Shown here piece by piece: positions 4,807 through 19,197 of a DNA stretch of 19,197 nt. Numbering within the stretch: position 1 is the stretch's first letter; the number at the start of each line of letters is the position of its first letter. The position numbers and the translations under genes were made by a program. The stretch is taken from IMG/VR virus record IMGVR_UViG_2667527789_000020, positions 1-19,197 of that record; one strand, written 5' to 3'. Source of the DNA: a virus (taxonomy: Duplodnaviria > Heunggongvirae > Uroviricota > Caudoviricetes). Below the pieces are notes generated by a model, which was not told the origin of the DNA, did no database searches, and was given only the letters and a program-made list of their open reading frames with translations.

Positions 4807-4943
4807 TAACTCACCACCGGAGGTAGCAATCTCATGGGTGGTGAGACGCACAGGGTTGCTACAACCGGTCATCATGGAACCCGGCCAGCCTTGCGGCTGC
4901 CCTGCACGCCCCACCATAATCTGAATGTGGCTGTGCATTACGC

Positions 4944-6006: not shown

Positions 6007-6017
6007 ACTATACAGTT

Positions 6018-6320: not shown

Positions 6321-6322
6321 GC

Positions 6323-6682: not shown

Positions 6683-6697
6683 AATCTGCTAGTCATT

Positions 6698-6746
6698 TGC
6701 CTGATGCTCGTTCCAGAAAAGGAATGCATCAGGCAGTTTTGTTTTT
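6698..6746 (+). terminator. Rho-independent terminator after higA (convergent with the repressor 3' end)
   Basis: TGCCTGATGC (6698-6707) pairs with GCATCAGGCA (6726-6735), with an inner TTCC/GGAA stem, followed by GTTTTGTTTTT. Overlaps the stop codon of the minus-strand repressor gene. Confidence 0.6.
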
Positions 6747-7121
6747 CTGCCGCAGTAACTCTTCAAGTTTCCGTTTATAGAAATCGCGTTTTTGCTCCAT
6801 ATCACGAATGATCTGCTCTGCGTCGCTTTGAGGTAACTCATCTAAAAGCGATATGATTTTTCGTTGTTGTTCTGTAAGTTGCGGTTGGTTGTCATTACTG
6901 GATACAGCCATTTTATCGCCGAGAGTTTCTTCTTCCATAAAGAACCAATGGACGGGATGTTGTGAGAGCTCTGCTAATTTTTCCAGTTTATCCATTCTTG
7001 GCATCACGCCTTTCAACCAACCTTGCACGGATTGGGGTTTTACACCAAGACGTCTTCCCAGCTCTGACTGGTTTATATTCAATTCCTGCAACACCTGCTG
7101 AAGGCGTTTTACAAAGATCAT
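6729..7121 (-). CDS. DicA-like prophage repressor (N-terminal XRE HTH, C-terminal coiled-coil), 130 aa
   Basis: HTH LQQVLQELNINQSELGRRLGVKPQSVQGWLKG, then a charged helical tail (EQQRKIISLLDELPQSDAEQIIRDMEQKRDFYKRKLEELLRQ) with the same architecture as DicA. No S24 peptidase domain. ATG at 7121 preferred (GAGGGG, 5-nt spacer) over the in-frame GTG at 7127. Divergent from the cro-like gene. Confidence 0.8.
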   Translation of the reverse strand: MIFVKRLQQVLQELNINQSELGRRLGVKPQSVQGWLKGVMPRMDKLEKLAELSQHPVHWFFMEEETLGDKMAVSSNDNQPQLTEQQRKIISLLDELPQSDAEQIIRDMEQKRDFYKRKLEELLRQKNKTA

Positions 7122-7176
7122 CACCACCCCTCGTAAACTAGTTCCGCGATCCTACAGAAAAAATTGATAAGTGGCA

Positions 7177-7214
7177 TTACAAATAGAAGTTGAAATTTAA
7201 ATTTAAATTTGTAA
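7177..7214. promoter_or_regulatory. Candidate operator (OR-like) in the repressor/cro divergent promoter region
   Basis: Inverted repeat TTACAAAT (7177-7184) / ATTTGTAA (7207-7214) flanking three tandem AAATTT units. Lies in the 126-bp intergenic space between the repressor start and the ydaS-like start. Confidence 0.4.
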
Positions 7215-7247
7215 TCATCGGTGTCATCGTAAAGTTCGGAGGGAAAC

Positions 7248-7508
7248 ATGCAAAAAAGTACTCAAGTGAAAATCCTGTCAATAATGAGCCAATCAGAATT
7301 AGGGCGTCGTCTTGGTAAAACACCGCAAACCATAAGTGGGTGGTTTAAAAAACGAGTGCCAGCGGAGGAGGTTATACCAGCATGTGAGGCGCTTGACTGG
7401 GGAGTAACTCCGCATGAATTGCGCCCTGATAAATACCCTAATCCAACCGATGGTTTACCTGTTGAGTATCAGGCTAACGCACAAGCAGCGGCGGGAGTTG
7501 ATTCATGA
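7248..7508 (+). CDS. ydaS: Cro-like HTH protein, YdaS family (86 aa)
   Basis: SQSELGRRLGKTPQTISGWFKKRVPAEEVIPACEALDWGVTPHELRPDKYP matches the YdaS/Cro-like pattern (LG.TPQ..S.W...VPAE.V...E......HELRPD.YP). ATG preceded by GGAGGG. Divergent from the repressor. Confidence 0.7.
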   Translation: MQKSTQVKILSIMSQSELGRRLGKTPQTISGWFKKRVPAEEVIPACEALDWGVTPHELRPDKYPNPTDGLPVEYQANAQAAAGVDS

Positions 7509-7942
7509 AAATCAAGCATGAGCACATCCGCATGGCGATGAATGCGTGGCTGCTTTATCCGAGGGTAGGGCGCAAAAAAATCGCTGATGATATAGCGACA
7601 GCATATTTTGAGCTTGAAATGACTTATCCACCAATGCATGACACCTCTACGACAGAGGGTATTGGATTGAATATACAAAATATTTTTCGCTGGCTTGAAA
7701 AGGATACGCCTGATGCTGTTGAAAAAATTCAGGCACTAATTCCGGCTATCCTGACTGTTCTTCCGCGTGAACTGCGTTATCACCTCAGTATTTTTGACAC
7801 TGTTGAGCGCCGTGCATTACTGGCGGCGCAGGAAGCGTTGAGCACGGCAATTGATGCACATGATGATGCTGTCCAGGCCGTTTACCGGAAAGCGTATTTC
7901 AGCGACGGCGGGTCATCCGGCGAGTCTGTTGTGGTGCATTGA
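7505..7942 (+). CDS. ydaT: YdaT-family protein (CII-like regulator / putative toxin YdaT), 145 aa
   Basis: Begins MKIKHEHI; C-terminal LIPAILTVLPRELRYHLSIFDTVERRALLAAQEALSTAIDAHDDAVQAVYRKAYFSDGGSSGESVVVH matches Rac YdaT as I recall it. ATGA overlap with the ydaS-like stop. Confidence 0.7.
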   Translation: MKIKHEHIRMAMNAWLLYPRVGRKKIADDIATAYFELEMTYPPMHDTSTTEGIGLNIQNIFRWLEKDTPDAVEKIQALIPAILTVLPRELRYHLSIFDTVERRALLAAQEALSTAIDAHDDAVQAVYRKAYFSDGGSSGESVVVH

Positions 7943-8028
7943 TATTTATGCCAGCCCCCTGCTGATTCTGTTGATTGGGGAATCACAGAATATCACCAGA
8001 GGATGGTTCGTCACAAGATGAGGCAATT

Positions 8029-9039
8029 ATGGCCGCATTACCATACATGCAACTGTACATAGCTGATTACCTAGCTGACACCATGCATTTGTCCGCAGAG
8101 GAGCACGGTGCGTATTTGTTGCTGATGTTCAATTACTGGCAAACAGGGAAACCAATACCTAAAAACAGGCTGGCAAAAATTTCCCGTCTGACTAACGAGC
8201 GATGGGCTGATGTGGAACCATCCTTGCGGGAGTTTTTTTGCGATAACGGCGATGAATGGGTGCATCTTCGGATTGAGGAAGATCTGGCATCAGTCAGGGA
8301 AAAATTAACCAAAAAATCAGCCGCCGGAAAAGCATCTGTTCAGGCCAGAAGAAGCAGAAAGGAAGCATATGTTCAAACAAAACAAGAGAGAGATTTAACA
8401 GGCGTTCAAACAAATGTTGGTGTTGTGTTTGAACATGACGCAAACACAAAAGCAACTAATAAAGATACAGATCTAAAAGAATTAAACCCCACACATAACG
8501 TGCGTGAACGCGAGAGTATTCCGACCAGTGAGTCGCATGGTGCGCCGTTGCAGACAGCCGAACCTGAATACCTGGACGGCCTGAGCGAACCGATCGGGAA
8601 ATTTTCGATGACCACTGTCTGGCAGCCGTCGCCGGATTTTCGACAACGGGCAGCAGTGTGGGGTATGGCTCTGCCTGAGCCGGAATTTACACCTGCTGAG
8701 CTTGCCGCATTCCGGGATTACTGGATGGCGGAGGGGAAGGTTTTCACACAGGTTCAGTGGGAGCAGAAATTTGCCCGCCACGTGCAGCACGTCAGGGCAC
8801 AGGTAAAACCAGTCAGCAAGGGGGGAAGCCATGCAGCATCAGGTGGCACGGCATCACGGGCAATTCAGGAAATCCGGGCAGCACGCGAACAGTGGGAACG
8901 AGACAACGGATTTATCAGCAACGGAAACGGCCTGGAAGCTGTGGGAGCTTATGGGGGAGGTGTATTCGAACCGCTGGACTCAGAAGAACGGGGCCGCACC
9001 TTCGAAGCTCTGGATTGCCCAGATTGGTGCGATGACTGA
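8029..9039 (+). CDS. Replication initiation protein, YdaU-like (DUF1376 N-terminal domain, DnaT-like C-terminal region)
   Basis: ATG at 8029 preceded by GAGG with a 5-nt spacer; the six-frame ORF starts at a TTG at 7975. N-terminus YMQLYIADYLADTMHLSAEEHGAYLLLMFNYWQTG is the DUF1376 signature. C-terminal half (SMTTVWQPSPDFRQRAAVWG...FTPAELAAFRDYW) resembles DnaT-like domains. Confidence 0.7.
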   Translation: MAALPYMQLYIADYLADTMHLSAEEHGAYLLLMFNYWQTGKPIPKNRLAKISRLTNERWADVEPSLREFFCDNGDEWVHLRIEEDLASVREKLTKKSAAGKASVQARRSRKEAYVQTKQERDLTGVQTNVGVVFEHDANTKATNKDTDLKELNPTHNVRERESIPTSESHGAPLQTAEPEYLDGLSEPIGKFSMTTVWQPSPDFRQRAAVWGMALPEPEFTPAELAAFRDYWMAEGKVFTQVQWEQKFARHVQHVRAQVKPVSKGGSHAASGGTASRAIQEIRAAREQWERDNGFISNGNGLEAVGAYGGGVFEPLDSEERGRTFEALDCPDWCDD

Positions 9040-9493
9040 ACAGCAAATCCGGCAGGTCTGTCGTCAGTGCATGGACCGCTGCCGGGCGGGTGAAACGTGG
9101 CCCCCGGACCTGGCTGAGTTTGTTGCGCTGATTTCGGAGAGTGGGGCAAATCCATTTGGTCTTACGGTGGATGCCGTGATGGAAGAGTACCGGCGCTGGC
9201 GCAATGAATCCTGGCGATACGACGGGAGTGATAAATACCCGTGGCCACAGCCTGTGCTGTACCACATCTGCCTCGAAATGCGTACCAGAGGGATTGAGCG
9301 CCAGATGACGCAGGGTGAGTTAAAACGACTTGCGGAACGGCAACTGACGAAATGGGCAAAGCATGTTGGTAACGGGATGAGTGTTCCGCCAGTGCGACGA
9401 CAACTGGAAGGGGCGAAACACCCGAAAGGGCCAACGCCAATTGAATGGCTGAAACAGGAATACGAACGCCGGAAGGCAGCTGGTTTTATTTGA
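8831..9493 (+). CDS. Lambda P-like replication protein (helicase loader family)
   Basis: PPDLAEFVALISESGANPFGLTVDAVMEEYRRWRNE...DKYPWPQPVLYHICLEMRTRG...QGELKRLAERQL parallels lambda P (PSPGQFVAWCREE...GLPNVSELVDMVYEYCRKRG...ESYPWKSNAHYWL...TDAELRRKAADEL). ATG at 8831 has a strong SD (AAGGGGGGAAG) but overlaps the upstream gene by 209 bp in another frame. Alternative starts are 8951 and 9032. Confidence 0.6.
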   Translation: MQHQVARHHGQFRKSGQHANSGNETTDLSATETAWKLWELMGEVYSNRWTQKNGAAPSKLWIAQIGAMTEQQIRQVCRQCMDRCRAGETWPPDLAEFVALISESGANPFGLTVDAVMEEYRRWRNESWRYDGSDKYPWPQPVLYHICLEMRTRGIERQMTQGELKRLAERQLTKWAKHVGNGMSVPPVRRQLEGAKHPKGPTPIEWLKQEYERRKAAGFI

Positions 9494-9526
9494 ATCTGAG
9501 AAGCGATTTTGTAGGAGGAAATTTTA

Positions 9527-10288
9527 ATGGAAACCGTTTTTGACGCACTGAAAGCAATGGGAAAAGCCAGCTCTGTTGGACTGGCTGAGCGGCTTGATAT
9601 CAGTCGTGAAGAGGTTCTCAACGAACTGTGGGAACTCAAAAGAAATGGCGTTGTTGATAAAGCGGGTCACATCTGGTTTCTGGCTGGCGAAGGTGAATCC
9701 GGGGTAACCGAAGAGCAGCCAGAACAGTCTGAAGTACCGGATGTGCTGACCGGGGAGGTCGAACAAAAAGTTACCGCAGACATGATGATTGAGTTTATCG
9801 GTCAGGAGGGGGCTAAAACGTGTGAGGAACTGGCGGATAAGTTCGGTGTTAGCATTCGCAAGGTTGCTTCCACGTTGGCGGTGGTAACCGCAACGGGACG
9901 CCTGGCACGCGTAAATCAGAACGGTAAATTTCGTTACTGCATGCCGGGCGATAATTTACCAGCAGAGCCGAAAGCCGTGCCGGTAACGGAAAATGATGGT
10001 AAGGCCTTTCCTCAGCCAGCAGGTGTTGCGTTACCAGTACAGGAATCTGCAACACAGGAAGATATTAAAACAGAAACAGTGGCGGACATTGTGCAGTCGT
10101 TGCCATCGTTTACCGAAACGCAAGCAGATGAGCTGATTTTTCTGTCCCTGTGCAGGGCAAACCTGGCGCTGCGCAGGGCGAAAAGTGATGTTCAGAAGTG
10201 GGAGCGAGTCTGTGCCGCGCTGCGGGAACTGAACAAACACAGGGATATTCTCCGGGATATTACCGCCACCAGAGAGCTGCTGCGGTGA
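9527..10288 (+). CDS. Hypothetical protein with two tandem winged-helix-like modules (253 aa)
   Basis: ATG preceded by AGGAGG. Two internally similar segments ([30 protein letters not shown] and [32 protein letters not shown]) look like wHTH units. Function unknown. Confidence 0.65.
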
Positions 10289-10320
10289 GTGGCTGGAAGA
10301 AGTGGCGCTGGGCGGAAATT

Positions 10321-10602
10321 ATGATACTCCGGCAGTGTGCGGGAACGATGACAGTCGAAAGCATCGGCAGTCTGATTGGCCGTAGTGGGGCTGCCGTCAG
10401 GACGAAAGCGCGGGAACTGGGTATCTGCATGATGTTACGGGGTGATTATCACCAGTCAGCCAAATGTTCACAGCGTGATATTGAGCTGGCGCGGCAACTG
10501 CATCAGCGTGGCGTACCCCGACGGGAAATTGCCGAAAAGTTTGGGATGAAGTTGGGCGCAGTGAATAACTACGTTTATTTCGACAGGAGGGTTCAGGCGT
10601 GA
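10321..10602 (+). CDS. Small HTH-domain protein
   Basis: Two HTH-like segments (TVESIGSLIGRSGAAVRTKARELGI and VPRREIAEKFGMKLGAVNNYV). Start is uncertain: GTG 10285 overlapping the upstream stop, ATG 10321 or ATG 10342, all with weak RBS. Confidence 0.5.
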   Translation: MILRQCAGTMTVESIGSLIGRSGAAVRTKARELGICMMLRGDYHQSAKCSQRDIELARQLHQRGVPRREIAEKFGMKLGAVNNYVYFDRRVQA

Positions 10603-10904
10603 GGGTGAGAATTTATATCGCCGGTCCGATGACGGGATATGAAAATTTCAACCGTGAGGCGTTTCACAGGGCGGAAGAAGCACTGAAACGGGAAGGGCAT
10701 ACCGTTTTAAACCCGGCAGTACTTCCGGACGGACTGACACAGCCACACTACATGGATATTTGCATGGCGATGATACGCTGCGTGGATGCGATTTACATGC
10801 TGAAAGGCTGGCAGCGGTCGGCAGGCGCTAAGGCAGAACTGGCACTGGCGGAGAAACTGGGACATGCGGTTATTTTCCAGGAGGCAACCAGTGAGAAAAA
10901 TTAA
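10599..10904 (+). CDS. DUF4406-family protein (nucleoside 2-deoxyribosyltransferase-like fold), 101 aa
   Basis: GTG start overlapping the upstream stop (GTGA), preceded by AGGAGG. N-terminal MRVRIYIAGPMTGYENFNREAF is the characteristic DUF4406 signature. Confidence 0.7.
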   Translation: MRVRIYIAGPMTGYENFNREAFHRAEEALKREGHTVLNPAVLPDGLTQPHYMDICMAMIRCVDAIYMLKGWQRSAGAKAELALAEKLGHAVIFQEATSEKN

Positions 10905-11541
10905 TTATCAGACGCTACGTGAGATAGCAAAACTGGCAACCCAGGGCGAATGGGTCGCATTCATTTCGCCGGGCACTGATACATATGCGGTGCATACGCC
11001 GGGGGATGAACGTTGCGGAGACATTATCAAATGGCCTGGCTTTGATGACCAGAAAAATGCAGAGAACAACGCAGAATTTATTGCAGCTTTCAACCCTGAA
11101 GTAGTACAGGCACTGCTGGATGAACGGGAAGCCCAAAGCAAACGTATTGCAGAGCTGGAAGCTAATCTTGTGGCGCTGGCGGCGGAGAATGCACTTGCTC
11201 GTAAAGCAGTTCAGGCATTCTGCGATGTTGTTGGCGACAACACCGAGGTTATCTGCGAGGAGGTTGGGAGAGATGGCGTTCTGGTTATTTTGGAGGCCAT
11301 GAAGGCAACAGGAAATATGCCAGCCACCGATGCTTTCCTGTCTGAAGTGCGGGCGCTGGGGGTGGATGCTGCTATAGAAGCTGCAAAAAATCTGGTGGCC
11401 CAAGAATATGAGTATAAGGATTTCAAAGCGGCGCAGAGTGATTGCTGTATGCACCCTGGTTCAGACCTGATAGGGAAGGTTGAAATGACTGAGTGGTTAG
11501 TTGACTTTGCTGCCCAGCTTCGCAAAGGAGTTCAGTCATGA
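10891..11541 (+). CDS. ead/Ea22-like family protein
   Basis: GTG start (AGGAGG, 6-nt spacer) giving VRKINYQTLREIAKLATQGEW..., the Ea22-like N-terminal motif, followed by a coiled-coil segment (AQSKRIAELEANLVALAAENALARKAV). The six-frame ORF begins upstream at 10864 inside the DUF4406 gene. Confidence 0.6.
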   Translation: MRKINYQTLREIAKLATQGEWVAFISPGTDTYAVHTPGDERCGDIIKWPGFDDQKNAENNAEFIAAFNPEVVQALLDEREAQSKRIAELEANLVALAAENALARKAVQAFCDVVGDNTEVICEEVGRDGVLVILEAMKATGNMPATDAFLSEVRALGVDAAIEAAKNLVAQEYEYKDFKAAQSDCCMHPGSDLIGKVEMTEWLVDFAAQLRKGVQS

Positions 11542-11867
11542 GAGCTTCAATTAGTTATGTCGACGATTGCCACCTAAGCGTGCGTGTTGATGAAATTGTG
11601 TCATCCGTGCCAACTTTTCCGACAAAAAATGCAGCCGTTAATGCAGGCGCGCCATTCGGATGGAGGACGGCAGTTCGTATTGAGCGTCGATTCGAAAACG
11701 TTTGGGTGGTAGGTAAGAAATGCTTCCAAAGCGATCGCTCTGCGGGGCTTAATTTTGAAGCATATCGATTCCCGTTCCTCCGATGGGAGAAAGAGGGCGG
11801 GATTACAAAATGCCCGATTCTTTCCGTGCGCAGATTCAAGCAGGAGGCAACCAGTGAGCAAGATTGA
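11538..11867 (+). CDS. Hypothetical protein (109 aa)
   Basis: ATGA overlap with the upstream stop. Its C-terminus (...KQEATSEQD) is encoded by the same 18-bp junction sequence that forms the C-terminus of the DUF4406 gene (...FQEATSEKN), which suggests a genuine gene at a module joint. Confidence 0.4.
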   Translation: MRASISYVDDCHLSVRVDEIVSSVPTFPTKNAAVNAGAPFGWRTAVRIERRFENVWVVGKKCFQSDRSAGLNFEAYRFPFLRWEKEGGITKCPILSVRRFKQEATSEQD

Positions 11868-12198
11868 CTATCAGGTATTGCGTGAGGCAGCACAAAACTA
11901 TCGGTCGATGCTGGCGTGGTATCAGGAGAAACCAGACAGTCCAAACGCTGAGCAGGATTGTGATGCAGCTTTGGCTGCGTTTAAGCGTGAAATCCGTCAT
12001 CGTGAAGTGGGTATTATCGCTGATTTGCTGGATGAACTGGAGGAAGCAAAACAGCGTATCGACGAGCAGGAGTCCCGCATAGTGAAGTTACCAGAACCAT
12101 TCAAGCTGGCTAAATCATCAAGTGGATTAACGTACTACTACGCTGATGAGGTCAATGCCGCACTGACTGCTGCTGGTATTCGCATAGAAGGAGAGTGA
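11854..12198 (+). CDS. Ea22-like N-terminal-motif protein (114 aa)
   Basis: GTG start within the repeated junction. VSKIDYQVLREAAQNY parallels VRKINYQTLREIAKLA of the upstream Ea22-like gene, followed by a coiled-coil segment (LDELEEAKQRIDEQESRIVKL). Confidence 0.5.
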   Translation: MSKIDYQVLREAAQNYRSMLAWYQEKPDSPNAEQDCDAALAAFKREIRHREVGIIADLLDELEEAKQRIDEQESRIVKLPEPFKLAKSSSGLTYYYADEVNAALTAAGIRIEGE

Positions 12199-12199
12199 G

Positions 12200-12553
12200 A
12201 TGACCACTATTACCAAAGAGCGACTGCAATGGCTGGCTAACATTTCTGGCCGCGATGACATTGACGATATAGACGGCGGTGAAATTCGTGAGCTGGCGCT
12301 TATCGCGCTGGCATCGCTGGAAGCGAAGCCTGTAGCTTCATGTATTATTGAAGATGGGGGCATGTGTGTTGACGGGTTCGGTGAGTATGTTGGTCACTCG
12401 CTGCCTGATGGAACGCACCAGCTTTACGCCGCCCCGCCAGTGCCTAGTAAGTTGCCGCGTGAATACAGAAACGGTTGGCCTCTTGCATATAGTGATTATG
12501 CTGAAGGCTGGAACGACTGCCGCGAAGCCATGCTTCAGGGAGATAAATCATGA
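12200..12553 (+). CDS. Hypothetical protein (117 aa)
   Basis: ATG preceded by GGAGAG, 1 bp after the upstream stop; the downstream gene starts with an ATGA overlap. No recognisable domain. Confidence 0.55.
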   Translation: MTTITKERLQWLANISGRDDIDDIDGGEIRELALIALASLEAKPVASCIIEDGGMCVDGFGEYVGHSLPDGTHQLYAAPPVPSKLPREYRNGWPLAYSDYAEGWNDCREAMLQGDKS

Positions 12554-12912
12554 TTAATCGTATCAAGCTGGAGCACATCCTCGAATATGCCAGGCAGCAG
12601 AAGCATACTGGTCAGCATTGTAAAATTCCACCAGGGGATATGGTTGAAATCATGGAGATTGCCATGCGCAAGGCTGGCAATTCTCCGGTAACTCCGGATG
12701 GTTGGATAAGCTGTAGTGAGCGAATGCCGAATACCAAAACAGCCGTTCTTGTTGCCGTGGAGTTTGACAGGAAAGGTGACTGGCGAATGAAATGGGCTAC
12801 TTACATCCCGGGGCATCATGACGCTAATGATGGGTGGATAATTCCTGGTGCGTCGTGGAAACCGTCACACTGGATGCCGCTACCAGAACCGCCGAAGGAG
12901 GTGCGCCAATGA
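12550..12912 (+). CDS. DUF551-domain protein (120 aa)
   Basis: C-terminal DGWISCSERMPNT...VLVAV...W......W...SHWMPLPEPP is the characteristic DUF551 signature of lambdoid nin-region proteins. Confidence 0.65.
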   Translation: MINRIKLEHILEYARQQKHTGQHCKIPPGDMVEIMEIAMRKAGNSPVTPDGWISCSERMPNTKTAVLVAVEFDRKGDWRMKWATYIPGHHDANDGWIIPGASWKPSHWMPLPEPPKEVRQ

Positions 12913-13138
12913 GCTGGCCTGAGGCCTTCTCAAATGTTGGTATTGCAATGGCGCTGGTGGTGTATTCGATTTGCCGCTGGGGATAAAAACGGTTTGCGGG
13001 GAAAGAAGAGTTAAGTAGAATTGCTGCGGGTGCCTGAGGCTGTCTGCCTCAGGCATGAACACCAAAAGGCAGATAGAGAAAGCCCCAGTTAACATTACGC
13101 GTCCTGTAAGACGCTCAACATTAATCTGAGGCATATGG

Positions 13139-14263
13139 ATGCGGATGAAAGAATTAAATAAATTCAGAGTGATAGACCTCTTTTGTGGGGCAGGTGGATT
13201 ATCTTATGGTTTTCTTCATGGAGAGATGTCTGACTACTTTGAAAGTATCCTTGCTATTGATAATAATGCTGCAGCTATAAATACCTACAATGCCAATTTT
13301 GGTTTGCATGGAGTTCAGGCAAATATTGAGGAGTGGGCATCCAGCAATACTGTTCCTGAGGCTGATGTGGTCATAGGTGGCCCCCCGTGTCAGGGATTCA
13401 GTTTATTGAATAAGAATCGTTATGGTGATCACCGAAGAGCATTGTGGGAGCCTTATATGGATGTCATTGAGCGTTCAAGGGCTTGCATGTTCGTCATGGA
13501 AAATGTCCCCGGATTGCTGATAAGCGATGAGTTTGCGGACATTACGTTTAGAGCGAAATCCATGGGCTTTATTCTGCTTAATCCAATGGTGTTGAATACT
13601 GCTGACTATGGAGTACCTCAGACAAGAAAACGAACGATAGCAATCGGTATCAAACGAGAACTCTTCGATGAGCATAGTATTCCGGCGTTCCCGCCAGCAC
13701 CAACGCATCGTTCCCCTGATAAGGATGTCGCTTTGCCTGAATGGGTCTGTACGCGTGATGCAATTGGTGACTTACCTGCTCCTGTTGGAACTGATATTCG
13801 TAATGAACTTCCTCCGCTGAACTTACATTTTGGGCGTAATCCCACACCTGTTTCTCTGGAGCGATATAAAGCGGTTCCACCAGGAGGTAACCGTTTCGAT
13901 TTACAGAAAAAAAGACCTGATATAACCCCGGCGTGCTGGCTAAAAAAGAAATCTGGAGGGACCGATTTGTTTGGACGTCTGTGGTGGGACAGACCTTCAG
14001 TAACGATTCGTACTGAGTTTTTCAAACCGGAGAAAGGGCGATATTTACATCCGGAAGAGGATCGGCCAATAACTCATCGTGAGGCAGCGAGATTAATGTC
14101 TTTTCCTGATAATTTCATTTTTACCGGTTCAAAAACTGAGATTGCAAAGCAGATCGGGAATGCTGTTCCACCGCTATTTGCGGCAAAAATCGCACAATAT
14201 GTGTATGGAGTTTTGCAGGGACGGTATAAGAATAACATCAGTAAGAATAGTCAAGCAGCCTGA
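13139..14263 (+). CDS. DNA (cytosine-5)-methyltransferase, modification subunit of a Type II R-M system (374 aa)
   Basis: Motif I DLFCGAGG (FxGxGG), motif IV GGPPCQGFS (catalytic PC), motif VI ENV, motif X-like QIGNAVPPLFAAKIA. ATG preceded by GAGG with a 7-nt spacer. Visibly more AT-rich than the flanking phage genes. Confidence 0.9.
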   Translation: MRMKELNKFRVIDLFCGAGGLSYGFLHGEMSDYFESILAIDNNAAAINTYNANFGLHGVQANIEEWASSNTVPEADVVIGGPPCQGFSLLNKNRYGDHRRALWEPYMDVIERSRACMFVMENVPGLLISDEFADITFRAKSMGFILLNPMVLNTADYGVPQTRKRTIAIGIKRELFDEHSIPAFPPAPTHRSPDKDVALPEWVCTRDAIGDLPAPVGTDIRNELPPLNLHFGRNPTPVSLERYKAVPPGGNRFDLQKKRPDITPACWLKKKSGGTDLFGRLWWDRPSVTIRTEFFKPEKGRYLHPEEDRPITHREAARLMSFPDNFIFTGSKTEIAKQIGNAVPPLFAAKIAQYVYGVLQGRYKNNISKNSQAA

Positions 14264-14276
14264 AGGAAATCCAGAA

Positions 14277-15154
14277 ATGAATGGAGATTTGGTTGACAGC
14301 ATAGTTGGTTTTGCTGAAGCCAGAAAGGAGTTTCATGCCCAATTGTTACTGAATACGCTCACAATTAATACTGCCGGAGTTGTTAGTAACGCAGATAGCA
14401 GTAACAAAAACAGTAAAGCTATAGCAAGAGAAATTGCTCGCTTCTTGCAGGCTGAAACGATTGGTGAACGTGTTGCAGGGCAAACATCTGGTAATCAGTT
14501 TGAGAGTATCTGCGCAGAGTTTATAAAAAAACCTTTTTTAAACTCAGCCACTTACGCCCTGGGAAATGGAATGTATATCAGGTTTCTGGTAGAAACAGAT
14601 TAGAGATAGCTAAATATGAACAATATGCCCATCTTATAGCATTGGATAGTGCTGCAAAAAGTAATCCTCAGCTAGCTGCTGCACTGGGGAGTGATTATAC
14701 GATTTCACCAGATATTATTGTTGAAAGAGAACCTGAATGCGATCAAGTTATCAACAGTCCTGAATTACTGGTGGATGATTCTGTTACCCGCATGTCAGCT
14801 CTCAGGAGTTCGAATGGTGGGAAACCAATATTACACGCAAGTATTTCCTGCAAATGGACAATAAGAAGCGACCGGGCCCAGAATGCTCGTTCTGAGGCAT
14901 TAAATCTTATTCGCAACCGTAAGGGAAATCTCCCTCATGTAATGGTTGTTACTGCTGAGCCTACTCCAAGTCGTCTGGCGTCTATTGCTCTTGGTACTGG
15001 TGATATAGATTGCGTGTACCATTTTGCGCTTTATGAACTTATATCAGCAGTTGAAATACTGGGGCTCAGCGATGCAGCTGACATGCTTTCCGTGATGGTT
15101 AATGGTAAAAGATTAAAGGATATTTCTGATCTTCCCTTGGATCTTGCAGTCTGA
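14277..15154 (+). pseudogene. Type II restriction endonuclease, Cfr10I/NgoMIV-like, reading frame split by a 1-nt shift in a homopolymer region
   Basis: N-terminal piece 14277-14603 (frame 3) and C-terminal piece open from 14504 to 15154 (frame 2) overlap around an A7 tract (14525-14531) and a T6 tract (14534-14539). The C-terminal piece carries SPD-X46-SCK-X13-E (SPDIIVERE...HASISCKWTIRSDRAQNARSE), matching the PD-X46-55-K-X13-E active-site arrangement of the Cfr10I/NgoMIV family. Starts 14 bp after the C5-methyltransferase stop. Joined length is about 290 aa, typical for this family. Confidence 0.6.
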
Positions 15155-15226
15155 CATCTCTATGTAAATAGAGTCTGTCATATTTTAACTGTGATGGCAC
15201 GTCATTGACTTCAGTACATTTTTACT

Positions 15227-15252
15227 AACCTGCTTCGCGGGTTTTGTTTTTT
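15227..15252 (+). terminator. Rho-independent terminator downstream of the R-M cassette
   Basis: AACCTGC-ttc-GCGGGTT stem (7 bp with one G-U pair) followed by TTGTTTTTT. A weaker hairpin (GACA.CTCTA / TAGAG..TGTC) lies directly after the endonuclease stop at 15153-15179. Confidence 0.55.
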
Positions 15253-15324
15253 CCTGGCATTCTGGTTTACAATCCACACGCCAGCCTGAACAACTGGCAC
15301 CTGCTGCGCCAGCAGAGACAACCG

Positions 15325-15597
15325 ATGGCGCACAATACCAAACACCACAATTCTGATACCGACCCTGCCAGCAGGTACGGGCGGCGTTCTCACACATTCA
15401 AATCTGACTGGTTCCAGCATGACCCATGCACTGAAGAACAGGCCGAATGGCTGATCCAGTGTTACCGCAGGCGCGGATATGAGTTTGAGAAAGCCCTCAG
15501 CCTCGATTATCGTCACTGGATAATCTCTGTCAGGCTCCCTTATTCCGAACGCCCACCTCGTCCGTCCCGCACATTCCAGCAGCGCATCTGGAGGTAA
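15325..15597 (+). CDS. Hypothetical protein, translationally coupled to the DUF968 gene
   Basis: Stop at 15595-15597 lies 1 bp before the DUF968 ATG. The six-frame ORF starts at 15244 inside the terminator, so the internal ATG at 15325 (MAHNTKHH...) is preferred. RBS is weak and no domain is recognised. Confidence 0.4.
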   Translation: MAHNTKHHNSDTDPASRYGRRSHTFKSDWFQHDPCTEEQAEWLIQCYRRRGYEFEKALSLDYRHWIISVRLPYSERPPRPSRTFQQRIWR

Positions 15598-15598
15598 C

Positions 15599-16657
15599 AT
15601 GCGGGTATTACTTCGACCTGTTCTGGTACCGGAACTCGGGATGGTGGTCCTTAAGCCGGGTCGTGAATCAATGTCAGCATTCCATAACGGCAGAATATTG
15701 GTGGAGCCGGAACCGAAAAACATGCGCGGTCTGCCGTCCGGAGTCGTTCCCGCCGTTCGACAGCCGCTGGCAGAGGATAAAACATTACTGCCATTTTTCA
15801 GCAACGAACGGGTGATTCGTGCTGCGGGTGGCGCTGGTGCACTGTCTGACTGGTTATTACGTCACGTGAAATCCTGCCAGTGGCCACACGGCGATTATCA
15901 TCACAGCGAAACCGTTATTCACCGTTACGGTGCTGGCGCAATGGTGTTGTGCTGGCACTGTGACAACCAGCTGCGCGACCAGACATCAGAATCACTCGAT
16001 CAACTTGCTCAGCAGAATCTGGTTGCCTGGATGATTGACGTCATCCGTCATGCAATAAGCGGTACGCAGGAGAGGGAGTTATCGCTGGCCGAATTATCCT
16101 GGTGGGCGGCCTGCAATCAGGTGGTGGATGCACTACCTGAGGCAGTAGCGCGTCGTTCGCTGGGATTACCGGTGGAAAAAATCCGCTCCGTATACCGTGA
16201 GAGTGACATCGTACCGGGAGAACAGACAGCCATCAGCATACTGAAGCAGCGCACAAAAAATATTGCGCTGCCACTTCACGTCCACCAGCAACAGCCCCCA
16301 CCCCAGGAAAAGACGTTAGTAAGCATCGCCGTTGATCCGGAGTCTCCGGCTCAGTACCTCCAGCGCCAGAAACCACAACGGGAAGAGATGCCTGTATACA
16401 CGCGCTGGGTAAAAACGCAGAAATGCATGACGTGTGGCAATCAGGCAGATGATCCGCATCACATCATTGGTCATGGACTGGGAGGCATGGGAACAAAGGC
16501 TGACGATTTGTTTGTTATTCCGTTATGCCGTAAATGCCATAACGAACTACATGCCGGAGTAAAAGATTTTGAAGAGAAACACGGCAGTCAGCTGTTGTTG
16601 CTGATTCGTTTTTTAATGCACGCGAGAAATTCGGGTGTTCTGAAGTGGAAAGCATAA
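15599..16657 (+). CDS. DUF968-domain protein (YdfU-like) with C-terminal HNH-like Cys/His motif, 352 aa
   Basis: ATG preceded by GGAGG. C-terminus CMTCGNQADDPHHIIGHGLGG...LCRKCHNELH is an HNH/zinc-finger-like CxxC...HH...CxxH arrangement. Sits immediately upstream of rusA, as ydfU-like genes do in lambdoid prophages. Confidence 0.8.
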   Translation: MRVLLRPVLVPELGMVVLKPGRESMSAFHNGRILVEPEPKNMRGLPSGVVPAVRQPLAEDKTLLPFFSNERVIRAAGGAGALSDWLLRHVKSCQWPHGDYHHSETVIHRYGAGAMVLCWHCDNQLRDQTSESLDQLAQQNLVAWMIDVIRHAISGTQERELSLAELSWWAACNQVVDALPEAVARRSLGLPVEKIRSVYRESDIVPGEQTAISILKQRTKNIALPLHVHQQQPPPQEKTLVSIAVDPESPAQYLQRQKPQREEMPVYTRWVKTQKCMTCGNQADDPHHIIGHGLGGMGTKADDLFVIPLCRKCHNELHAGVKDFEEKHGSQLLLLIRFLMHARNSGVLKWKA

Positions 16658-17026
16658 ATGACCGAGCGCATAGAATTTGTTTTGCCTTACCCGCCGACGG
16701 TGAACACTTACTGGCGACGCCGTGGCAGCACATATTTTGTATCAAAATCCGGGGAGCGTTATCGCCGGGCAGTGGCACTTATTGTTCGCCAGCAGCAGTT
16801 GAAATTAAGCCTGTCCGGACGGCTGGCAATAAAAATTATTGCAGAACCACCGGATAAGCGCCGCCGTGACCTGGACAATATTCTGAAAGCACCGCTGGAT
16901 GCGCTGACGCACGCGGGGTTGTTAATGGACGATGAACAGTTTGATGAAATCAATATTGTACGTGGTCAGCCAGTATCTGGTGGACGGCTGGAAATAAGAA
17001 TTACAGAGGTGGGTGTGCATGAATAA
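16658..17026 (+). CDS. rusA: Holliday junction resolvase RusA (crossover junction endodeoxyribonuclease), 122 aa
   Basis: LPYPPTVNTYWRRRG...DKRRRDLDNILKAPLDALTHAGLLMDDEQ...GGRLEIRITEVG matches E. coli RusA (LPWPPSNNRYYR...[22 protein letters not shown]...GGRLELTITEMG), including the catalytic Asp cluster. Confidence 0.9.
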   Translation: MTERIEFVLPYPPTVNTYWRRRGSTYFVSKSGERYRRAVALIVRQQQLKLSLSGRLAIKIIAEPPDKRRRDLDNILKAPLDALTHAGLLMDDEQFDEINIVRGQPVSGGRLEIRITEVGVHE

Positions 17027-17708
17027 CCAGTATTTACAGTTTGTTCGTGAGCAACTCATGATTGCCACTGCAGATCTCAGTGGGTCGACAAAAGGCCAGC
17101 TGGAAGCCTGGCAGGAAAATGCCCTGTTCGATACAGGGCGTTACAGACGCAAAAAAATTCGTTACCGCGATGAGGTAACCGGAAAAATGATCACGCGGGA
17201 TAATCCCCCGATCCAGGGTAAACAATCACTGGCGAAAGGCTCATCAATTGCGCTGGTCAGTCCTGTTGAGTTTGCAACATCATCGTGGCGGCGTGCCCTT
17301 CTGGAACTGGAAGAACATCAGAAGGCGTGGTTGTTGTGGTGTTATGGCGGAAACATTTGCTGGGAGCATCAGATCGCGATAACGCAGTGGGTGTGGAGTG
17401 AATTTAAAACTCAGTCCGGCTCCAGAAAAATTGCAGTGAAAACGCTGGAGCGTGTGAAGAAGTTGATCTGGCTGGCGGCACAGGATGTCAGAGGATGGGT
17501 TACCGGGTGTGAGGTCTACCAGAGACAGGAGCTTGCCAGACTGTGTGGAGTTAAGCCTGATAACTGGAGCCATAATTATGCGAACTACTGGCGTGAGATG
17601 TGCGATATTTTTAAGCGTCTCGATAGAGAATCCTTGATTTGCTCCGTGAAAATAAGAGCGCAACAAAAAGCGACCTTTTCACGACGAGATATTGCAAAAG
17701 TCAATTAA
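17019..17708 (+). CDS. Putative late-gene antitermination protein Q (Qin/QuuQ-like), 229 aa
   Basis: ATG at 17019 overlaps the rusA stop (the six-frame ORF starts at GTG 17013). Position immediately after rusA and immediately upstream of a strong terminator is the canonical Q location. Family assignment is by position and size, not by recognised motifs. Confidence 0.55.
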   Translation: MNNQYLQFVREQLMIATADLSGSTKGQLEAWQENALFDTGRYRRKKIRYRDEVTGKMITRDNPPIQGKQSLAKGSSIALVSPVEFATSSWRRALLELEEHQKAWLLWCYGGNICWEHQIAITQWVWSEFKTQSGSRKIAVKTLERVKKLIWLAAQDVRGWVTGCEVYQRQELARLCGVKPDNWSHNYANYWREMCDIFKRLDRESLICSVKIRAQQKATFSRRDIAKVN

Positions 17709-17770
17709 ATCGCGTATGTTTCGTATAAATCTGATATTTTGCCGATTTTGTACACGATGGCAAAGTAAGA

Positions 17771-17797
17771 AAAAACCACCGCCAGGTGGTTTTTTTA
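17771..17797 (+). terminator. Rho-independent terminator (tR'-like) downstream of the putative Q gene
   Basis: AAAAA-ACCACC-gcca-GGTGGT-TTTTTTT: a 7-bp stem flanked by an A-run and a T7 run, 63 bp after the Q stop. Confidence 0.7.
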
Positions 17798-17919
17798 TGT
17801 CCGAAAATCTCGTCAGTACAGTAAACGCGCTGGTGGCGGTGAATACCGGTCTTTCAGCTTGCTGGCTTTTTTGACAAGAGTTATTGGTGTGTCACGTTAA
17901 CCGGAAAAGGGAAAAAGAC

Positions 17920-18117
17920 ATGCTGAAACAGCAGGATATGACCGAAACCGCCAGAGTGGTGTTTAATGAATTAAGCGTCACTGAACCGGCGACAGTCGGG
18001 GAGATTGCGCAGAATACTTATCTTTCACGTGAACGCTGCCAGTTAATACTGACCCAGCTTGTTATGGCGGGTCTGGCAGACTATCAGTTCGGTTGTTACA
18101 GACGCCTTCAGTCCTGA
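17920..18117 (+). CDS. Small putative winged-helix DNA-binding protein (65 aa)
   Basis: ATG at 17920 preceded by AAGGGAAAAAG; the six-frame ORF starts upstream at 17884. EPATVGEIAQNTYLSRERCQLILTQLVMAGL looks like a wHTH. Stop codon is embedded in a terminator. Confidence 0.45.
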   Translation: MLKQQDMTETARVVFNELSVTEPATVGEIAQNTYLSRERCQLILTQLVMAGLADYQFGCYRRLQS

Positions 18118-18127
18118 AGGCTTTTTT
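18104..18127 (+). terminator. Rho-independent terminator
   Basis: GCCTTCA-gtcc-TGAAGGC stem followed by TTTTTT. Overlaps the stop codon of the preceding small ORF. Confidence 0.65.
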
Positions 18128-18267
18128 ATTTGTGGTAAATGGGCGGCTGGTGGGTGTTAGGGGCACTCACCAGCCATCTGCTCATGCGTCCGGATCACAA
18201 GCAAACCTCAGGCCCACTGCTTTGCGCAAAAGCAGAATGAGCCTATCAGAGACAGGCTTAATGATCC

Positions 18268-19197
18268 ATGCTTAATACTGTAAAAATATCCAGTTGTGAG
18301 TTAATCAACGCCGACTGCCTGGAATTTATCCGGTCGTTACCCGAAAATTCTGTTGACCTGATAGTCACGGACCCGCCGTACTTTAAAGTGAAGCCTGAGG
18401 GCTGGGATAACCAGTGGAAGGGCGACGATGATTACCTGAAGTGGCTGGACCAGTGTCTTGCGCAGTTCTGGCGGGTGCTGAAACCTGCCGGAAGTCTTTA
18501 CCTGTTCTGTGGCCATCGCCTGGCATCTGATATCGAAATCATGATGCGTGAACGCTTCAGTGTGCTGAACCATATTATCTGGGCGAAGCCGTCCGGACGC
18601 TGGAACGGGTGCAACAAGGAAAGCCTGCGGGCGTATTTCCCCGCCACAGAGCGCATTCTGTTCGCGGAACATTATCAGGGGCCGTATCGTCCGAAAGATG
18701 CCGGGTATGAGGCGAAGGGCAGGGCACTGAAACAGCATGTGATGGCTCCGCTGATTGCTTACTTTCGTGATGCGCGTGCTGCCCTGGGGATAACGGCAAA
18801 ACAGATTGTGGATGCCACAGGAAAGAAAAACATGGTGTCGCACTGGTTCAGTGCCGGTCAGTGGCAGCTACCGAACGAAAGCGATTATCTGAAATTACAG
18901 GCGCTGTTTGCCCGGGTGGCAGAAGAGAAGCATCAGCGCGGTGAACTGGAAAAGCCCCACCACCAGCTGCTGGAGACGTATACTTCACTGAACCGGCAGT
19001 ATGCGGAACTGCAGAGTGAATATAAGCATCTGCGGCGGTATTTTGGCGTGACGGCGCAGGTGCCGTACACGGATGTGTGGACGCATAAACCGGTGCAGTA
19101 CTATCCCGGGAAACATCCGTGCGAAAAACCGGCAGAAATGCTGCAGCAGATAATCAGCGCGAGCAGTCGTCCGGGGGACCTGGTTGCAGATTTTTTC
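18268..19197 (+). CDS. DNA methyltransferase, beta class (N6-adenine or N4-cytosine), 3' end truncated by the window
   Basis: Open frame from ATG 18268 to the window end with no stop (so absent from the ORF track). DPPY motif (LIVTDPPYF) near the N-terminus and an AdoMet-binding-type motif beginning PGDLVADFF at the window edge; motif IV before motif I indicates the beta-class order. Confidence 0.85.
   Translation, partial: MLNTVKISSCELINADCLEFIRSLPENSVDLIVTDPPYFKVKPEGWDNQWKGDDDYLKWLDQCLAQFWRVLKPAGSLYLFCGHRLASDIEIMMRERFSVLNHIIWAKPSGRWNGCNKESLRAYFPATERILFAEHYQGPYRPKDAGYEAKGRALKQHVMAPLIAYFRDARAALGITAKQIVDATGKKNMVSHWFSAGQWQLPNESDYLKLQALFARVAEEKHQRGELEKPHHQLLETYTSLNRQYAELQSEYKHLRRYFGVTAQVPYTDVWTHKPVQYYPGKHPCEKPAEMLQQIISASSRPGDLVADFF

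Follow-up and report, generated by a model that had tools for sequence, protein, structure and literature searches.

A hok toxin mRNA leader fused to a DNA methyltransferase cassette, beside a separate conserved small gene, in a phage sequence

What lies in the short interval between a DUF551 gene and a DNA methyltransferase gene, and do its parts belong together? The question arises from a 19,197-nt sequence of a tailed phage (IMG/VR record IMGVR_UViG_2667527789_000020, positions 1 to 19,197; hereafter the window), in which the DUF551 gene (12550-12912, plus strand; Pfam PF04448, E = 1.7e-21) is followed by a tiny ORF, a hairpin and a C5 DNA cytosine methyltransferase gene (13139-14263, plus strand; Pfam PF00145, E = 3e-54). 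The initial annotation described a 25-codon ORF at 12909-12986 with an ATGA overlap on the DUF551 stop, and a perfect hairpin with a 10-bp stem and no T-run at 13031-13055; we find both exactly as described. The hairpin reads TGCCTGAGGC-tgtct-GCCTCAGGCA on the plus strand (arms 13031-13040 and 13046-13055), and is followed directly by TGAACACCAAAAGG, its last base lying 84 nt ahead of the methyltransferase ATG at 13139. The RNA form has a predicted folding energy of -22.3 kcal/mol (z = -5.4 relative to dinucleotide shuffles) and gains one further G.U pair. Counting perfect 10-bp stems with 3-8-nt loops across the whole window returned two (at 13031 and 17770), against a mean of 0.19 in 200 shuffles; since 25 of the 200 shuffles hold at least one perfect hairpin, the hairpin taken alone is only mildly unusual. 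A 25-codon ORF by itself is no evidence of a gene. The significance of both features comes from conservation rather than from the sequence of the window.

Comparison with known RNA families identifies the hairpin as the metastable/tac stem-loop that forms the 5' end of type I toxin mRNAs of the hok family, left from a toxin-antitoxin locus that the cassette overwrote, an identity that the initial annotation had missed. Window positions 13028-13208 match Rfam RF01794 at 61.0 bits against a gathering score of 59, about half of what intact hok loci score (113-122 bits): model positions 1-88 align in full, and in its 3' third the alignment covers methyltransferase coding sequence, a chance match. 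Within the model the hairpin takes up positions 1-30, of which position 7 is marked as non-canonical for the long stem. The 5' metastable hairpin, the tac/fbi and tac/ucb elements and the mok Shine-Dalgarno have all been described for hok mRNA, and in the intact mRNA the hairpin is transient, forming during transcription and trapping tac so that the toxin is not translated early (PMC9841398 for the element). All of the leader features that mark a hok/sok locus are found in the window, within a leader remnant spanning +1 to +105 (13028-13132, plus strand; RF01794 and leader alignments) that is 89-95% identical to the leaders ahead of mok/hok in three related loci (L002, L003 and L007). These are tac, which pairs with the sequence just downstream to form the metastable hairpin at 13031-13055 (RF01794 alignment, PMC9841398 and fold energies), the ucb/anti-Shine-Dalgarno AGCCCC (13081-13086, plus strand), the Sok-target region, and the former mok Shine-Dalgarno GAGG (13128-13131, plus strand; alignments), which now stands 7 nt 5' of the methyltransferase ATG. 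Ahead of the leader lies the hok promoter (12993-13021, plus strand), placed relative to Rfam model position 1, with a -35 TTTGCG at 12993-12998, a 17-nt spacer and a -10 TAGAAT at 13016-13021. The -10 is conserved in all hok loci and the relatives' -35 is TTGGCA or TTGGCG at unchanged spacing; the window's own promoter falls below threshold in a consensus promoter scan. By this alignment, the transcript would start at 13028.

The window thus retains the hok promoter, transcript start and leader as far as the mok Shine-Dalgarno, and a foreign methyltransferase/endonuclease cassette replaces the rest. Homology to every hok locus stops at 13132/13133 (CTGAGGC / ATATGGATGCGG), a left junction that is identical in the window, L005, L006, L129-131 and L186-209. 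Homology to hok-bearing phage backbones restarts at about 15209/15210, and the cassette (13133-15209) has taken the place of everything 3' of the leader. In L002, positions 1456-1685 align with window 12909-13132 and positions 2622-3185 with window 15210-15766 (87%); between these two matches the mok/hok segment has been swapped out, and no BLAST trace of it was found anywhere in the window, mok, hok and the 3' UTR all being gone. No Hok toxin ORF (about 50 aa, with the ...LCE[VI]R... motif) was found downstream of the leader. The mok reading frame, which overlaps and is coupled to hok, is absent, and the methyltransferase ATG stands in the mok start position; in L003, mok starts 8 nt past the end of homology to the window. 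The antisense side is equally incomplete. The sok promoter (TTGCCT-17-TAACCT) of L002, L003 and L007 occupies leader +129 to +157, past the junction at +105, and the minus strand of window 13133-13230 holds no equivalent. What is left of sok is its 3' two-thirds, body and terminator (13077-13132, minus strand), with the promoter and 5' recognition tail gone; the cassette has replaced the first ~17 nt of sok, and dcb as well. A substitute sok promoter inside the methyltransferase gene was considered and rejected, only weak matches being present (13236-13290). The 3' fbi (ending CCTCAAYGCACCC, at about +370) is present in L002, L003 and L007 and not in the window, where the best partner for tac is an unrelated G-rich site 3 kb away. 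Because mok, hok, the sok promoter and 5' tail, dcb and fbi are all missing, no toxin-antitoxin system is left and, judged on its sequence, the window cannot act as one.

The replacing segment is compositionally foreign (GC 39-47% within it against 50-57% outside). Its methyltransferase starts at 13139, or at 13145 according to RefSeq on the identical gene, WP_001427299.1, in L005 and L129; the translation displays motif I (FCGAGG) and the PCQ motif, the catalytic motifs of a C5 enzyme. Downstream lies an NgoMIV-family restriction endonuclease gene (14277-15154, plus strand) that is frameshifted, with Pfam PF09015 split over two ORFs by a 1-nt deletion at ~14525 (TATAGAAAAAAC to TATAAAAAAAC). 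The window therefore holds no intact cognate endonuclease. Compared with the intact 292-aa gene of L005 it shows 99.4% identity and this single indel, and the endonuclease is intact in all 22 related viral contigs of sufficient length; the frameshift may alternatively stem from a sequencing error in the A-run. Neither a donor of the cassette nor its native upstream sequence was found, the plasmid-borne methyltransferase homologues being at most 64% identical (Pandoraea, Sphingomonas). CCTNAGG, found in the hairpin arms and in the small ORF and nine times in the window against three expected, was considered as a recognition site; the idea was dropped because the cassette belongs to the NgoMIV family and because hok leaders ordinarily carry the motif at this place in the hairpin. 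The site of NgoMIV itself is GCCGGC.

The arrangement is not peculiar to the window. The same leader/cassette junction occurs in 60 of 5,426 complete E. coli genomes and in 24 viral contigs; one strain with the cassette is E. coli O157:H7 strain 9000 (CP018252). The hairpin, there containing wobble pairs, also stands at the head of about 95 ordinary hok loci. Another methyltransferase cassette, unrelated to the first (methyltransferase, GHKL ATPase and PF20553), has overwritten hok at the same region and likewise left the hairpin, with a breakpoint in L117 at about +80 to +98 of the leader as compared with hok subfamily L179. Two cassettes have replaced hok independently, and both breakpoints fall where mok translation would be initiated, within a structured regulatory RNA. 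We found no description of a hok leader fused to a restriction-modification cassette in the literature; the element itself is known, and its arrangement here is new.

Taken as a whole, the locus is best explained, and we are fairly confident of this, as a hok-leader relic overwritten by a restriction-modification cassette, next to a separate and real small gene. The leftover leader would then act as the methyltransferase 5' UTR, supplying a promoter (beside read-through from the upstream operon) and a Shine-Dalgarno, and the hok promoter is probably used for the methyltransferase. The hairpin would be an inherited relic with no dedicated restriction-modification function, a status supported by its presence in the ~95 ordinary hok loci and by the second cassette, which also left it in place. 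In the cassette lineage, it would have changed from a transient to a permanent stem. The earlier proposal of a boundary element of the cassette survives only loosely: the hairpin lies 77 nt upstream of the left junction and was present in every cassette copy examined, but as the stem-loop of the hok leader it is not specific to restriction-modification. The cassette-linked leader also carries three private substitutions and a 1-nt deletion, all of which shift the predicted folding consistently; this runs against a passive relic, and the leader could instead have adapted.

Three other readings of the hairpin were weighed. With its perfect 10-bp arms around a 5-bp spacer, upstream of a methyltransferase gene, the inverted repeat resembles a DNA operator for a restriction-modification regulator, for example a C protein or the methyltransferase itself. 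However, the ~95 hok loci share the element without restriction-modification genes, and their arms are imperfect as DNA yet pair as RNA through G.U; the palindrome sits 3' of the promoter, within the transcript; and the methyltransferase begins right at motif I, without an N-terminal DNA-binding extension. Only the M and R genes were found in 13133-15209, with no controller or HTH ORF. Since the cassette has no controller gene and the palindrome is older than the cassette, a C-protein operator finds no footing here, and we consider an operator of any such kind extremely unlikely. It is just as hard to credit a transcription terminator or insulator closing the DUF551/small-ORF operon: the stem is strong, GC-rich and placed after the last upstream ORF, but it lacks a T-run, a terminator scan of 12400-13400 returned nothing, and the hairpin spans +3 to +29 of a known transcript, 3' of a conserved promoter.

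The third reading is less improbable, although we lean against it: the hok leader may have been co-opted to control the methyltransferase, with a stable 5' hairpin guarding the mRNA end, a weak tac stem freeing the anti-Shine-Dalgarno, and the old Sok-target region pairing with the ribosome-binding site and start codons of the methyltransferase and throttling translation; Sok RNAs of sibling prophages may also act in trans, genomes with the cassette carrying up to seven hok-leader copies each. The C at 13034 makes the stem perfect and breaks one tac-stem pair. This perfect-stem allele (C7, with a shortened A-run) is found only with the cassette (28/28, against none of ~95 hok-linked leaders). 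By prediction, it brings the hairpin to within 2 kcal/mol of the tac stem, where the difference is otherwise 8-16 kcal/mol. C7 is the equivalent of T6 in R1, where T6C destabilises the tac stem and blocks translation (PMC9841398). Two further private SNPs, 13107 T and 13116 C, occur in 6/6 cassette leaders and in none of ~95 others; each adds stability to a predicted helix that joins leader +66..+90 to the region of the ribosome-binding site and ATGs (+100..+120), and the total gain of 5.3 kcal/mol switches the minimum free energy structure. Leader/RBS complementarity exceeds that of shuffles at p about 0.02, yet significance in the range p = 0.02-0.04 is modest. Moreover, a single fusion event is ancestral to all cassette copies, so the exclusivity of the allele may reflect linkage or drift after loss of the toxin, and L005 and L006 carry the cassette behind ordinary T7 leaders. 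Cassettes of the second type carry a promoter-like sequence of their own and start ~230 nt past the junction, so they do not use the leader in this way, and the Sok 5' recognition tail has no target in the cassette leader. The evidence for co-option consists entirely of in-silico predictions, and the regulatory role in methyltransferase expression that the initial annotation suggested for the hairpin is, on these predictions, possible.

The small ORF is a different matter. Its product, MSWPEAFSNVGIAMALVVYSICRWG (12909-12986, plus strand), is 25 aa long with a predicted single helix, and belongs to a family of 25-28 aa of the form M-x-WPEAF...YSICRWG, in which the window allele has an in-frame 2-codon deletion within the hydrophobic core. 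The last codons of the DUF551 gene hold its Shine-Dalgarno, AAGGAGGT (12895-12902, plus strand; 7 nt 5' of the ATG), and the DUF551 stop TGA at 12910-12912 overlaps its ATG at 12909-12911. Matches to the peptide were found in 93 phage records by tblastn, and copies were also gathered by degenerate DNA patterns; 55 distinct DNA variants were compared, which encode 35 different peptides. By codon position, they differ at 3.8/2.0/6.8, and pN/pS is 0.42. Across an independently anchored sample of some 120 copies, ~95% are intact, which bears out the expectation of conservation in related prophages. The start is ATG, rarely GTG, and the peptides have a mean Kyte-Doolittle value of 2.15 over residues 8-23. 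The sequence evidence points to a real conserved gene family, common at this position in lambdoid prophages, and the coding-type constraint agrees with the small membrane peptide first proposed: a single-helix peptide that probably inserts into the membrane and would be translationally coupled to whichever gene lies upstream. Searches of Pfam, NCBIfam and PHROGs with the peptide gave only sub-threshold hydrophobic matches, and we found no paper that prints it.

Could the conservation instead belong to a DNA or RNA element, or to a gene on the minus strand, the small ORF itself not being a gene? One antisense frame has an equally low pN/pS (0.41), minus-strand CDSs are annotated across the ORF in some records, no curated family covers it, and ~5% of copies are disrupted, with an amber at codon 3 recurring in diverged lineages. 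Against this, conservative replacements are confined to the plus frame (BLOSUM62 +0.36 vs -0.47), and the ends of the covering minus-strand ORFs vary widely whereas the start and stop of the plus ORF are fixed. All indels are in-frame, and an SD-like site lies 4-11 nt upstream in 127/127 copies across at least four unrelated upstream gene families. Mosaic boundaries fall at the start (L002) and at the stop (L004) of the small ORF, and the hydrophobic helix is kept in all 35 distinct peptides. We judge a non-coding origin of the conservation to be quite improbable. Candidate readings of the same segment that were rejected include the minus-strand 84-aa ORF of the window (12880-13134) and its relatives' minus-strand CDSs, which have variable ends and non-conservative replacements; programmed frameshifting that would carry ribosomes out of the upstream gene and into the frame of the peptide, for which the offset differs between contexts (-1 in the window vs +1 in L002); and a DUF551-peptide fusion. 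In the last case, 27-aa peptides share 90% clusters with DUF551 proteins of 121 and 185 aa, a clustering artefact, because those proteins end in ...PEPPQEVNQ without the peptide.

Hairpin and small ORF do not form a unit: the latter is missing from all 24 viral contigs and all three E. coli loci that carry the identical hairpin allele, and roughly half of its copies come without any hok leader. Where the small ORF neighbours hok, as it often does, shared gene order accounts for this; the gene is independent of hok and of the cassette alike.

How does the locus compare with known systems? It shares the promoter, transcription start and 105-nt leader with the hok/sok systems of plasmid R1 and of Sakai prophage Sp5 (hokW-sokW; PMC9841398, PMC8621323), and differs from them in everything listed above as lost; the leader itself differs from hok-linked leaders, whose hairpin is 8-16 kcal/mol weaker than the tac stem, in that its hairpin is perfect and of nearly equal energy. 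The cassette has the M-then-R order and the PF00145 and PF09015 domains of NgoMIV-family type II restriction-modification systems, and RefSeq annotates its relatives as a DNA cytosine methyltransferase and an NgoMIV-family endonuclease; unlike such systems, it appears to use a captured toxin-mRNA leader in place of its own promoter, and its endonuclease is frameshifted in the window. As in lambdoid moron and defence-cargo hotspots, a low-GC foreign cassette occupies a fixed slot, here between the replication/DUF551 region and DUF968-rusA-Q, which in lambdoid prophages holds hok, this restriction-modification cassette or the methyltransferase/GHKL ATPase/PF20553 cassette; unlike the usual hotspots, the breakpoints of two independent events lie inside a structured regulatory RNA. 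Small single-helix membrane proteins and type I toxins of bacteria include KdpF, DinQ, ShoB and Ibs. The small-ORF peptide resembles them in size (25-27 aa), in its one hydrophobic helix with aromatic and basic flanks and in being mostly unannotated; it shows no significant similarity to them (best KdpF, E = 0.024, below the cut-off), and its gene, which lacks a separate leader, would be translationally coupled to the one before it.

A joint reading, in which the hok slot is a recurrent exchange point, the leader has been exapted as a methyltransferase controller and the peptides form a new, widespread membrane-peptide family, seems to us unlikely. If true, a type I module would be swapped at the mok translation-initiation region for methyltransferase-based cassettes, and the NgoMIV-type lineage would have a post-transcriptional controller made of a locked 5' hairpin and a helix sequestering the ribosome-binding site. 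That helix would derive from the old Sok-target region via two private substitutions, with cross-talk from sibling Sok RNAs possible, and the M-x-WPEAF...YSICRWG peptides would have a role in lysogeny or exclusion.

None of these findings overturns current understanding. They do correct an annotation: the Rfam "sok antitoxin" match here is not a toxin-antitoxin system but a toxin-less leader fused to a DNA methyltransferase, and the same correction applies to at least 60 E. coli genomes, many of them O157:H7. They also draw attention to a phage peptide of 27 residues that is conserved yet passed over by most annotation pipelines. The locus is a natural example of one addiction/defence module being replaced by another at the same regulatory RNA, and offers a simple way to ask what role hok leader elements play once the toxin is lost.

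The hairpin between the DUF551 gene and the methyltransferase gene is an already described RNA element in a novel arrangement: a hok leader without its toxin, joined to an R-M cassette. In the window, the ATG at 12909 that opens the small ORF (to 12986, plus strand; product MSWPEAFSNVGIAMALVVYSICRWG) overlaps the TGA stop of the DUF551 gene (12550-12912; Pfam PF04448), and the hairpin has arms TGCCTGAGGC and GCCTCAGGCA at 13031-13040 and 13046-13055, a 5-nt loop and no T-run, as the initial annotation had described. The RNA fold reaches -22.3 kcal/mol (z = -5.4); perfect 10-bp hairpins number two in the window against a mean of 0.19 per shuffle, with at least one in 12.5% of shuffles. By itself the window sequence makes neither the small ORF nor the hairpin compelling, and the identity of both is drawn from comparison with other sequences. 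The observation held, whereas its interpretation, a small membrane peptide and a regulatory or boundary element for the R-M cassette, was right only in part: the small gene stood, and the hairpin proved to belong to hok.

In an Rfam scan, RF01794 matched plus-strand positions 13028-13208 at 61 bits (gathering score 59). Despite its name, "sok antitoxin", this model spans the 5' leader of hok mRNA, from nucleotide 1 up to the hok ATG, and the hairpin aligns with model positions 1-30. In the inert full-length form of R1 hok mRNA, the 5' 'tac' element is paired with the 3' 'fbi' element, and after 3' processing a pairing of tac with 'ucb' (the mok anti-SD) exposes the mok Shine-Dalgarno (SD) sequence (PMC9841398); the hairpin is the 5' hairpin of this published scheme. 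Upstream of it lies the hok promoter, with -35 TTTGCG (12993-12998), a 17-nt spacer and -10 TAGAAT (13016-13021); in relatives the -10 is unchanged throughout and the -35 reads TTGGCA or TTGGCG.

Window sequence from about 12949 to 13132 recurs with 90-96% identity in many lambdoid phages, and every time the homology ends at 13132. In Rac-SA53 the annotated mok begins 8 nt past this point and is followed by hok, and mok/hok likewise follow in vB_EcoS-689R5 (L002) and, with mokW, in Min27. Since vB_EcoS-689R5 matches the window on both sides (1456-1685 with 12909-13132, 2622-3185 with 15210-15766), window positions 13133-15209 replace mok/hok and one further gene. The replacing DNA carries an R-M gene pair, a PF00145 C5 cytosine methyltransferase and a PF09015 endonuclease of the NgoMIV family, at 39-47% GC against 50-57% in the flanks. 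Alignments place the junction directly 3' of the mok SD (CTGAGGC, then ATATGGATGCGG), with the methyltransferase ATG at 13139 in the expected position of the mok ATG, 7 nt from GAGG. Three ATGs lie close together behind this former SD (13135-13147): the one at 13135 opens an out-of-frame ORF of 8 codons, and those at 13139 and 13145 are in-frame candidate starts, the latter being the RefSeq choice in an identical gene. The replacement removed mok, hok, dcb and about 17 nt of the 5' end of sok; the sok promoter (TTGCCT-17-TAACCT, at leader +129 to +157 in intact loci, past the junction at +105) has no equivalent in the window, nor was fbi (about +370 in the three intact loci) found there. RF01794 scores 113-122 bits at intact loci against 61 for the window and for L129, another cassette carrier. 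Given these losses, what remains is no toxin-antitoxin locus but the promoter and leader of hok joined to an R-M cassette. The endonuclease gene (14277-15154) carries a 1-nt deletion by an A-run at about 14525 (TATAGAAAAAAC to TATAAAAAAAC), which yields two ORFs (14142-14603 and 14642-15154), and apart from this shares 99.4% identity with the intact gene of 292 aa; the indel reflects either true decay that leaves the methyltransferase an orphan or a sequencing error in the homopolymer.

The junction occurs in 60 of 5426 complete E. coli genomes, many of them O157:H7, with 58 of the 60 at 99% identity or more. It is the same base for base in the cassette carriers L005, L006 and L129-131, and so had a single origin from which it spread. 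L129-131 have QueH upstream, lack the small ORF and match the window only from about 24 nt 5' of +1 (13028); despite this different upstream DNA, their hairpin allele is that of the window. When the perfect-hairpin allele was searched for by exact match, it was found in 24 viral contigs, in every one of which the methyltransferase junction is present and in none of which hok or the small ORF occurs; the endonuclease is intact (292 aa) in all 22 of sufficient length. We found no otherwise identical cassette without the hairpin, which is present in the cassettes of these 24 contigs and of L129-131; the small ORF, by contrast, is not part of the cassette. In L005 and L006, RefSeq has a 34-aa hypothetical protein (WP_001278450.1, 3367-3471) that follows the small ORF (3248-3331, itself unannotated) and precedes the hok promoter; it has no counterpart in the window and may be another small gene of the same slot.

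Comparison of leaders shows the perfect stem to be a derived state. Leader position 7 is T in all of about 95 hok-linked leaders, whose hairpins (-16 to -20 kcal/mol) each contain one wobble pair or more, and with two exceptions their long tac stem exceeds the hairpin in stability by 8-16 kcal/mol, which fits a merely transient hairpin. In the main cassette allele, position 7 (13034) is C and the A-run is one A shorter; its hairpin becomes perfect (-22.3), its tac stem (-24.3) lacks the U7-A55 pair, flagged as non-canonical in Rfam's own alignment, and the gap falls to 2 kcal/mol. From its pairing context (G-C-U facing A-G-C in the anti-SD) we infer that position 7 corresponds to T6 of R1 hok, where T6C is reported as a loss-of-function change that destabilises the tac stem (PMC9841398).

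The leader could in principle have adapted to its new gene rather than persisting as a passive relic. Two further substitutions, 13107 T and 13116 C, occur in 6/6 cassette-linked leaders but in 0 of about 95 hok-linked ones, and both reinforce a predicted helix between the old Sok-target region (+66 to +90) and the methyltransferase RBS and start codons (+100 to +120), in which CGCGUCC/GGAUGCG spans the ATG at 13139; jointly they add 5.3 kcal/mol of helix strength and switch the predicted MFE. We nevertheless consider such co-option unlikely, since the complementarity is only modestly beyond chance (p about 0.02-0.04), all cassette copies derive from one fusion, and L005 and L006 have ordinary T7 leaders; given the last two points, drift after toxin loss explains the leader data as well as adaptation does.

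That the hairpin is a relic is also supported by its having been left in place in a second and independent replacement. Among 104 leaders with enough downstream DNA, hok comes next in 93, this methyltransferase in 5, an insertion-interrupted hok in 2, a hok variant in 1 and a different cassette in 3 (L117, L120 and L160). This second cassette (L117 4030-7839), 3' of the hok promoter and 5' hairpin, comprises a 383-aa C5 methyltransferase just 29% identical to that of the window and, on the opposite strand, a PF20553 methyltransferase-like protein and a GHKL (HATPase_c_3) ATPase; it has its own promoter-like sequence (TGTTATAAT) and looks like a defence-type module. Relative to its matching hok subfamily (L179), homology extends from the -10 box as far as about +80 to +98 and is lost around the mok SD and start. 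At least two replacements have thus struck hok at its translation-initiation region, each sparing the promoter and the 5' hairpin. At L027 and L099, unrelated sequence with an identical novel ORF (MYGSTTYCNFCSLLKY...) breaks the mok/hok region soon after the hok SD; it looks like the end of an insertion element and is an additional route to toxin inactivation.

The small ORF is conserved as a full-length peptide in 93 phage records (tblastn), and its N-terminal DNA pattern retrieved 127 copies with 55 distinct DNA variants and 35 distinct peptides. Over codons 8-27, outside the part fixed by the search pattern, mean pairwise differences per codon position are 3.8/2.0/6.8 and pN/pS is 0.42, against 0.76 and 2.06 in the remaining forward frames; a value of 0.41 in one antisense frame is the expected third-position ambiguity, and replacements are conservative in the plus frame only (mean BLOSUM62 +0.36 vs -0.47). 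Start and stop are fixed, every indel is in-frame, the ends of overlapping minus-strand ORFs vary widely, and mosaic boundaries fall at the start (L002) and the stop (L004). An SD lies 4-11 nt upstream in 127/127 copies, within the last codons of upstream genes from at least four unrelated families. A second sample, drawn independently by way of the C-terminus, contained about 120 genuine copies, some 95% intact at 25-28 codons, N-terminal motif variants included. Disruptions are rare: the start is lost in L002, L142 and L151, and codon 3 is amber in several lineages. This TGG to TAG change recurs in clearly diverged copies that are otherwise open (L001, the L004 group, L103, L135), and could reflect independent inactivation, spread by recombination or something else. 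From conservation, coding-type substitutions and SDs together we conclude that this is a real, translationally coupled small gene encoding a single-helix peptide, which from its hydrophobicity alone may insert into the membrane. Some pipelines call the 27-aa ORF a "bacteriophage protein", one variant of which occurs on 79 contigs; the 25-aa allele of the window, with a 2-codon deletion in the helix, was absent from a 15-billion-protein collection, the peptide has no significant family match in Pfam, NCBIfam or PHROG, and its sequence was not found in print. A hok leader lies within 600 nt of about half of the copies and is lacking for the other half; the small ORF adjoins hok by shared gene order.

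Other features of the window were recorded alongside. The second perfect hairpin (AAAAAACCACC-gcca-GGTGGTTTTTT, 17770-17795), 60 nt 3' of the Q antiterminator gene (17013-17708), is flanked on both sides by A-/T-runs like a bidirectional intrinsic terminator, and is probably a late-operon terminator of tR' type. The 9-mer GCCTGAGGC occurs in the WPEA codons of the small ORF (12916-12924) and in the hairpin left arm (13032-13040), and in read-through transcripts both copies might compete for the right arm; because the copies differ in relatives (GCCTGAAGC vs GCTTGAGGC), their identity is window-specific and probably coincidental. CCTNAGG is overrepresented (9 sites, at 5832, 6416, 12918, 13033, 13047, 13355, 16136, 18206 and 18394, vs 3.0 expected; 0/200 shuffles reached 9), and the resident R-M system, being NgoMIV-family, is not an obvious cause. 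An 84-aa ORF on the minus strand (12880-13134) runs over the entire hok leader, the small ORF and the 3' end of the DUF551 gene; some phage records list ORFs of this kind as CDSs (such as Min27 ORF82 and POCJ13 gp73), but as genes all are almost certainly spurious, with ends that vary widely among relatives. At 4834-5022 on the minus strand, Rfam identifies a C4 antisense RNA (RF01695, 77.9 bits) beside the Hfq-binding RNA isrK (RF01394, 64.7 bits), a P1/P7-type immunity/antirepressor control module in this lambdoid prophage.

Alongside the identities, junctions, element losses and allele linkage observed here, we propose how the locus would work. The methyltransferase-endonuclease mRNA would begin at 13028, from the weak hok promoter, and as no terminator was found between the upstream operon and the methyltransferase gene, read-through would probably contribute extra transcription. 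The former mok SD would drive initiation at 13139. The 5' hairpin would stay as a stable terminal stem-loop, and the folding switch would have nothing to control because fbi, dcb, sok and the toxin are gone. In E. coli, mRNAs with a stem at most 2 nt from the 5' terminus tend to be more stable. Together with the description of hok mRNA as highly stable (PMC3874152), this makes a stabilising side-effect of the hairpin on the cassette mRNA plausible. For annotation, Rfam 'sok' matches may, as here, be no toxin-antitoxin system, and the locus, although of modest overall weight, is a natural experiment in module replacement.
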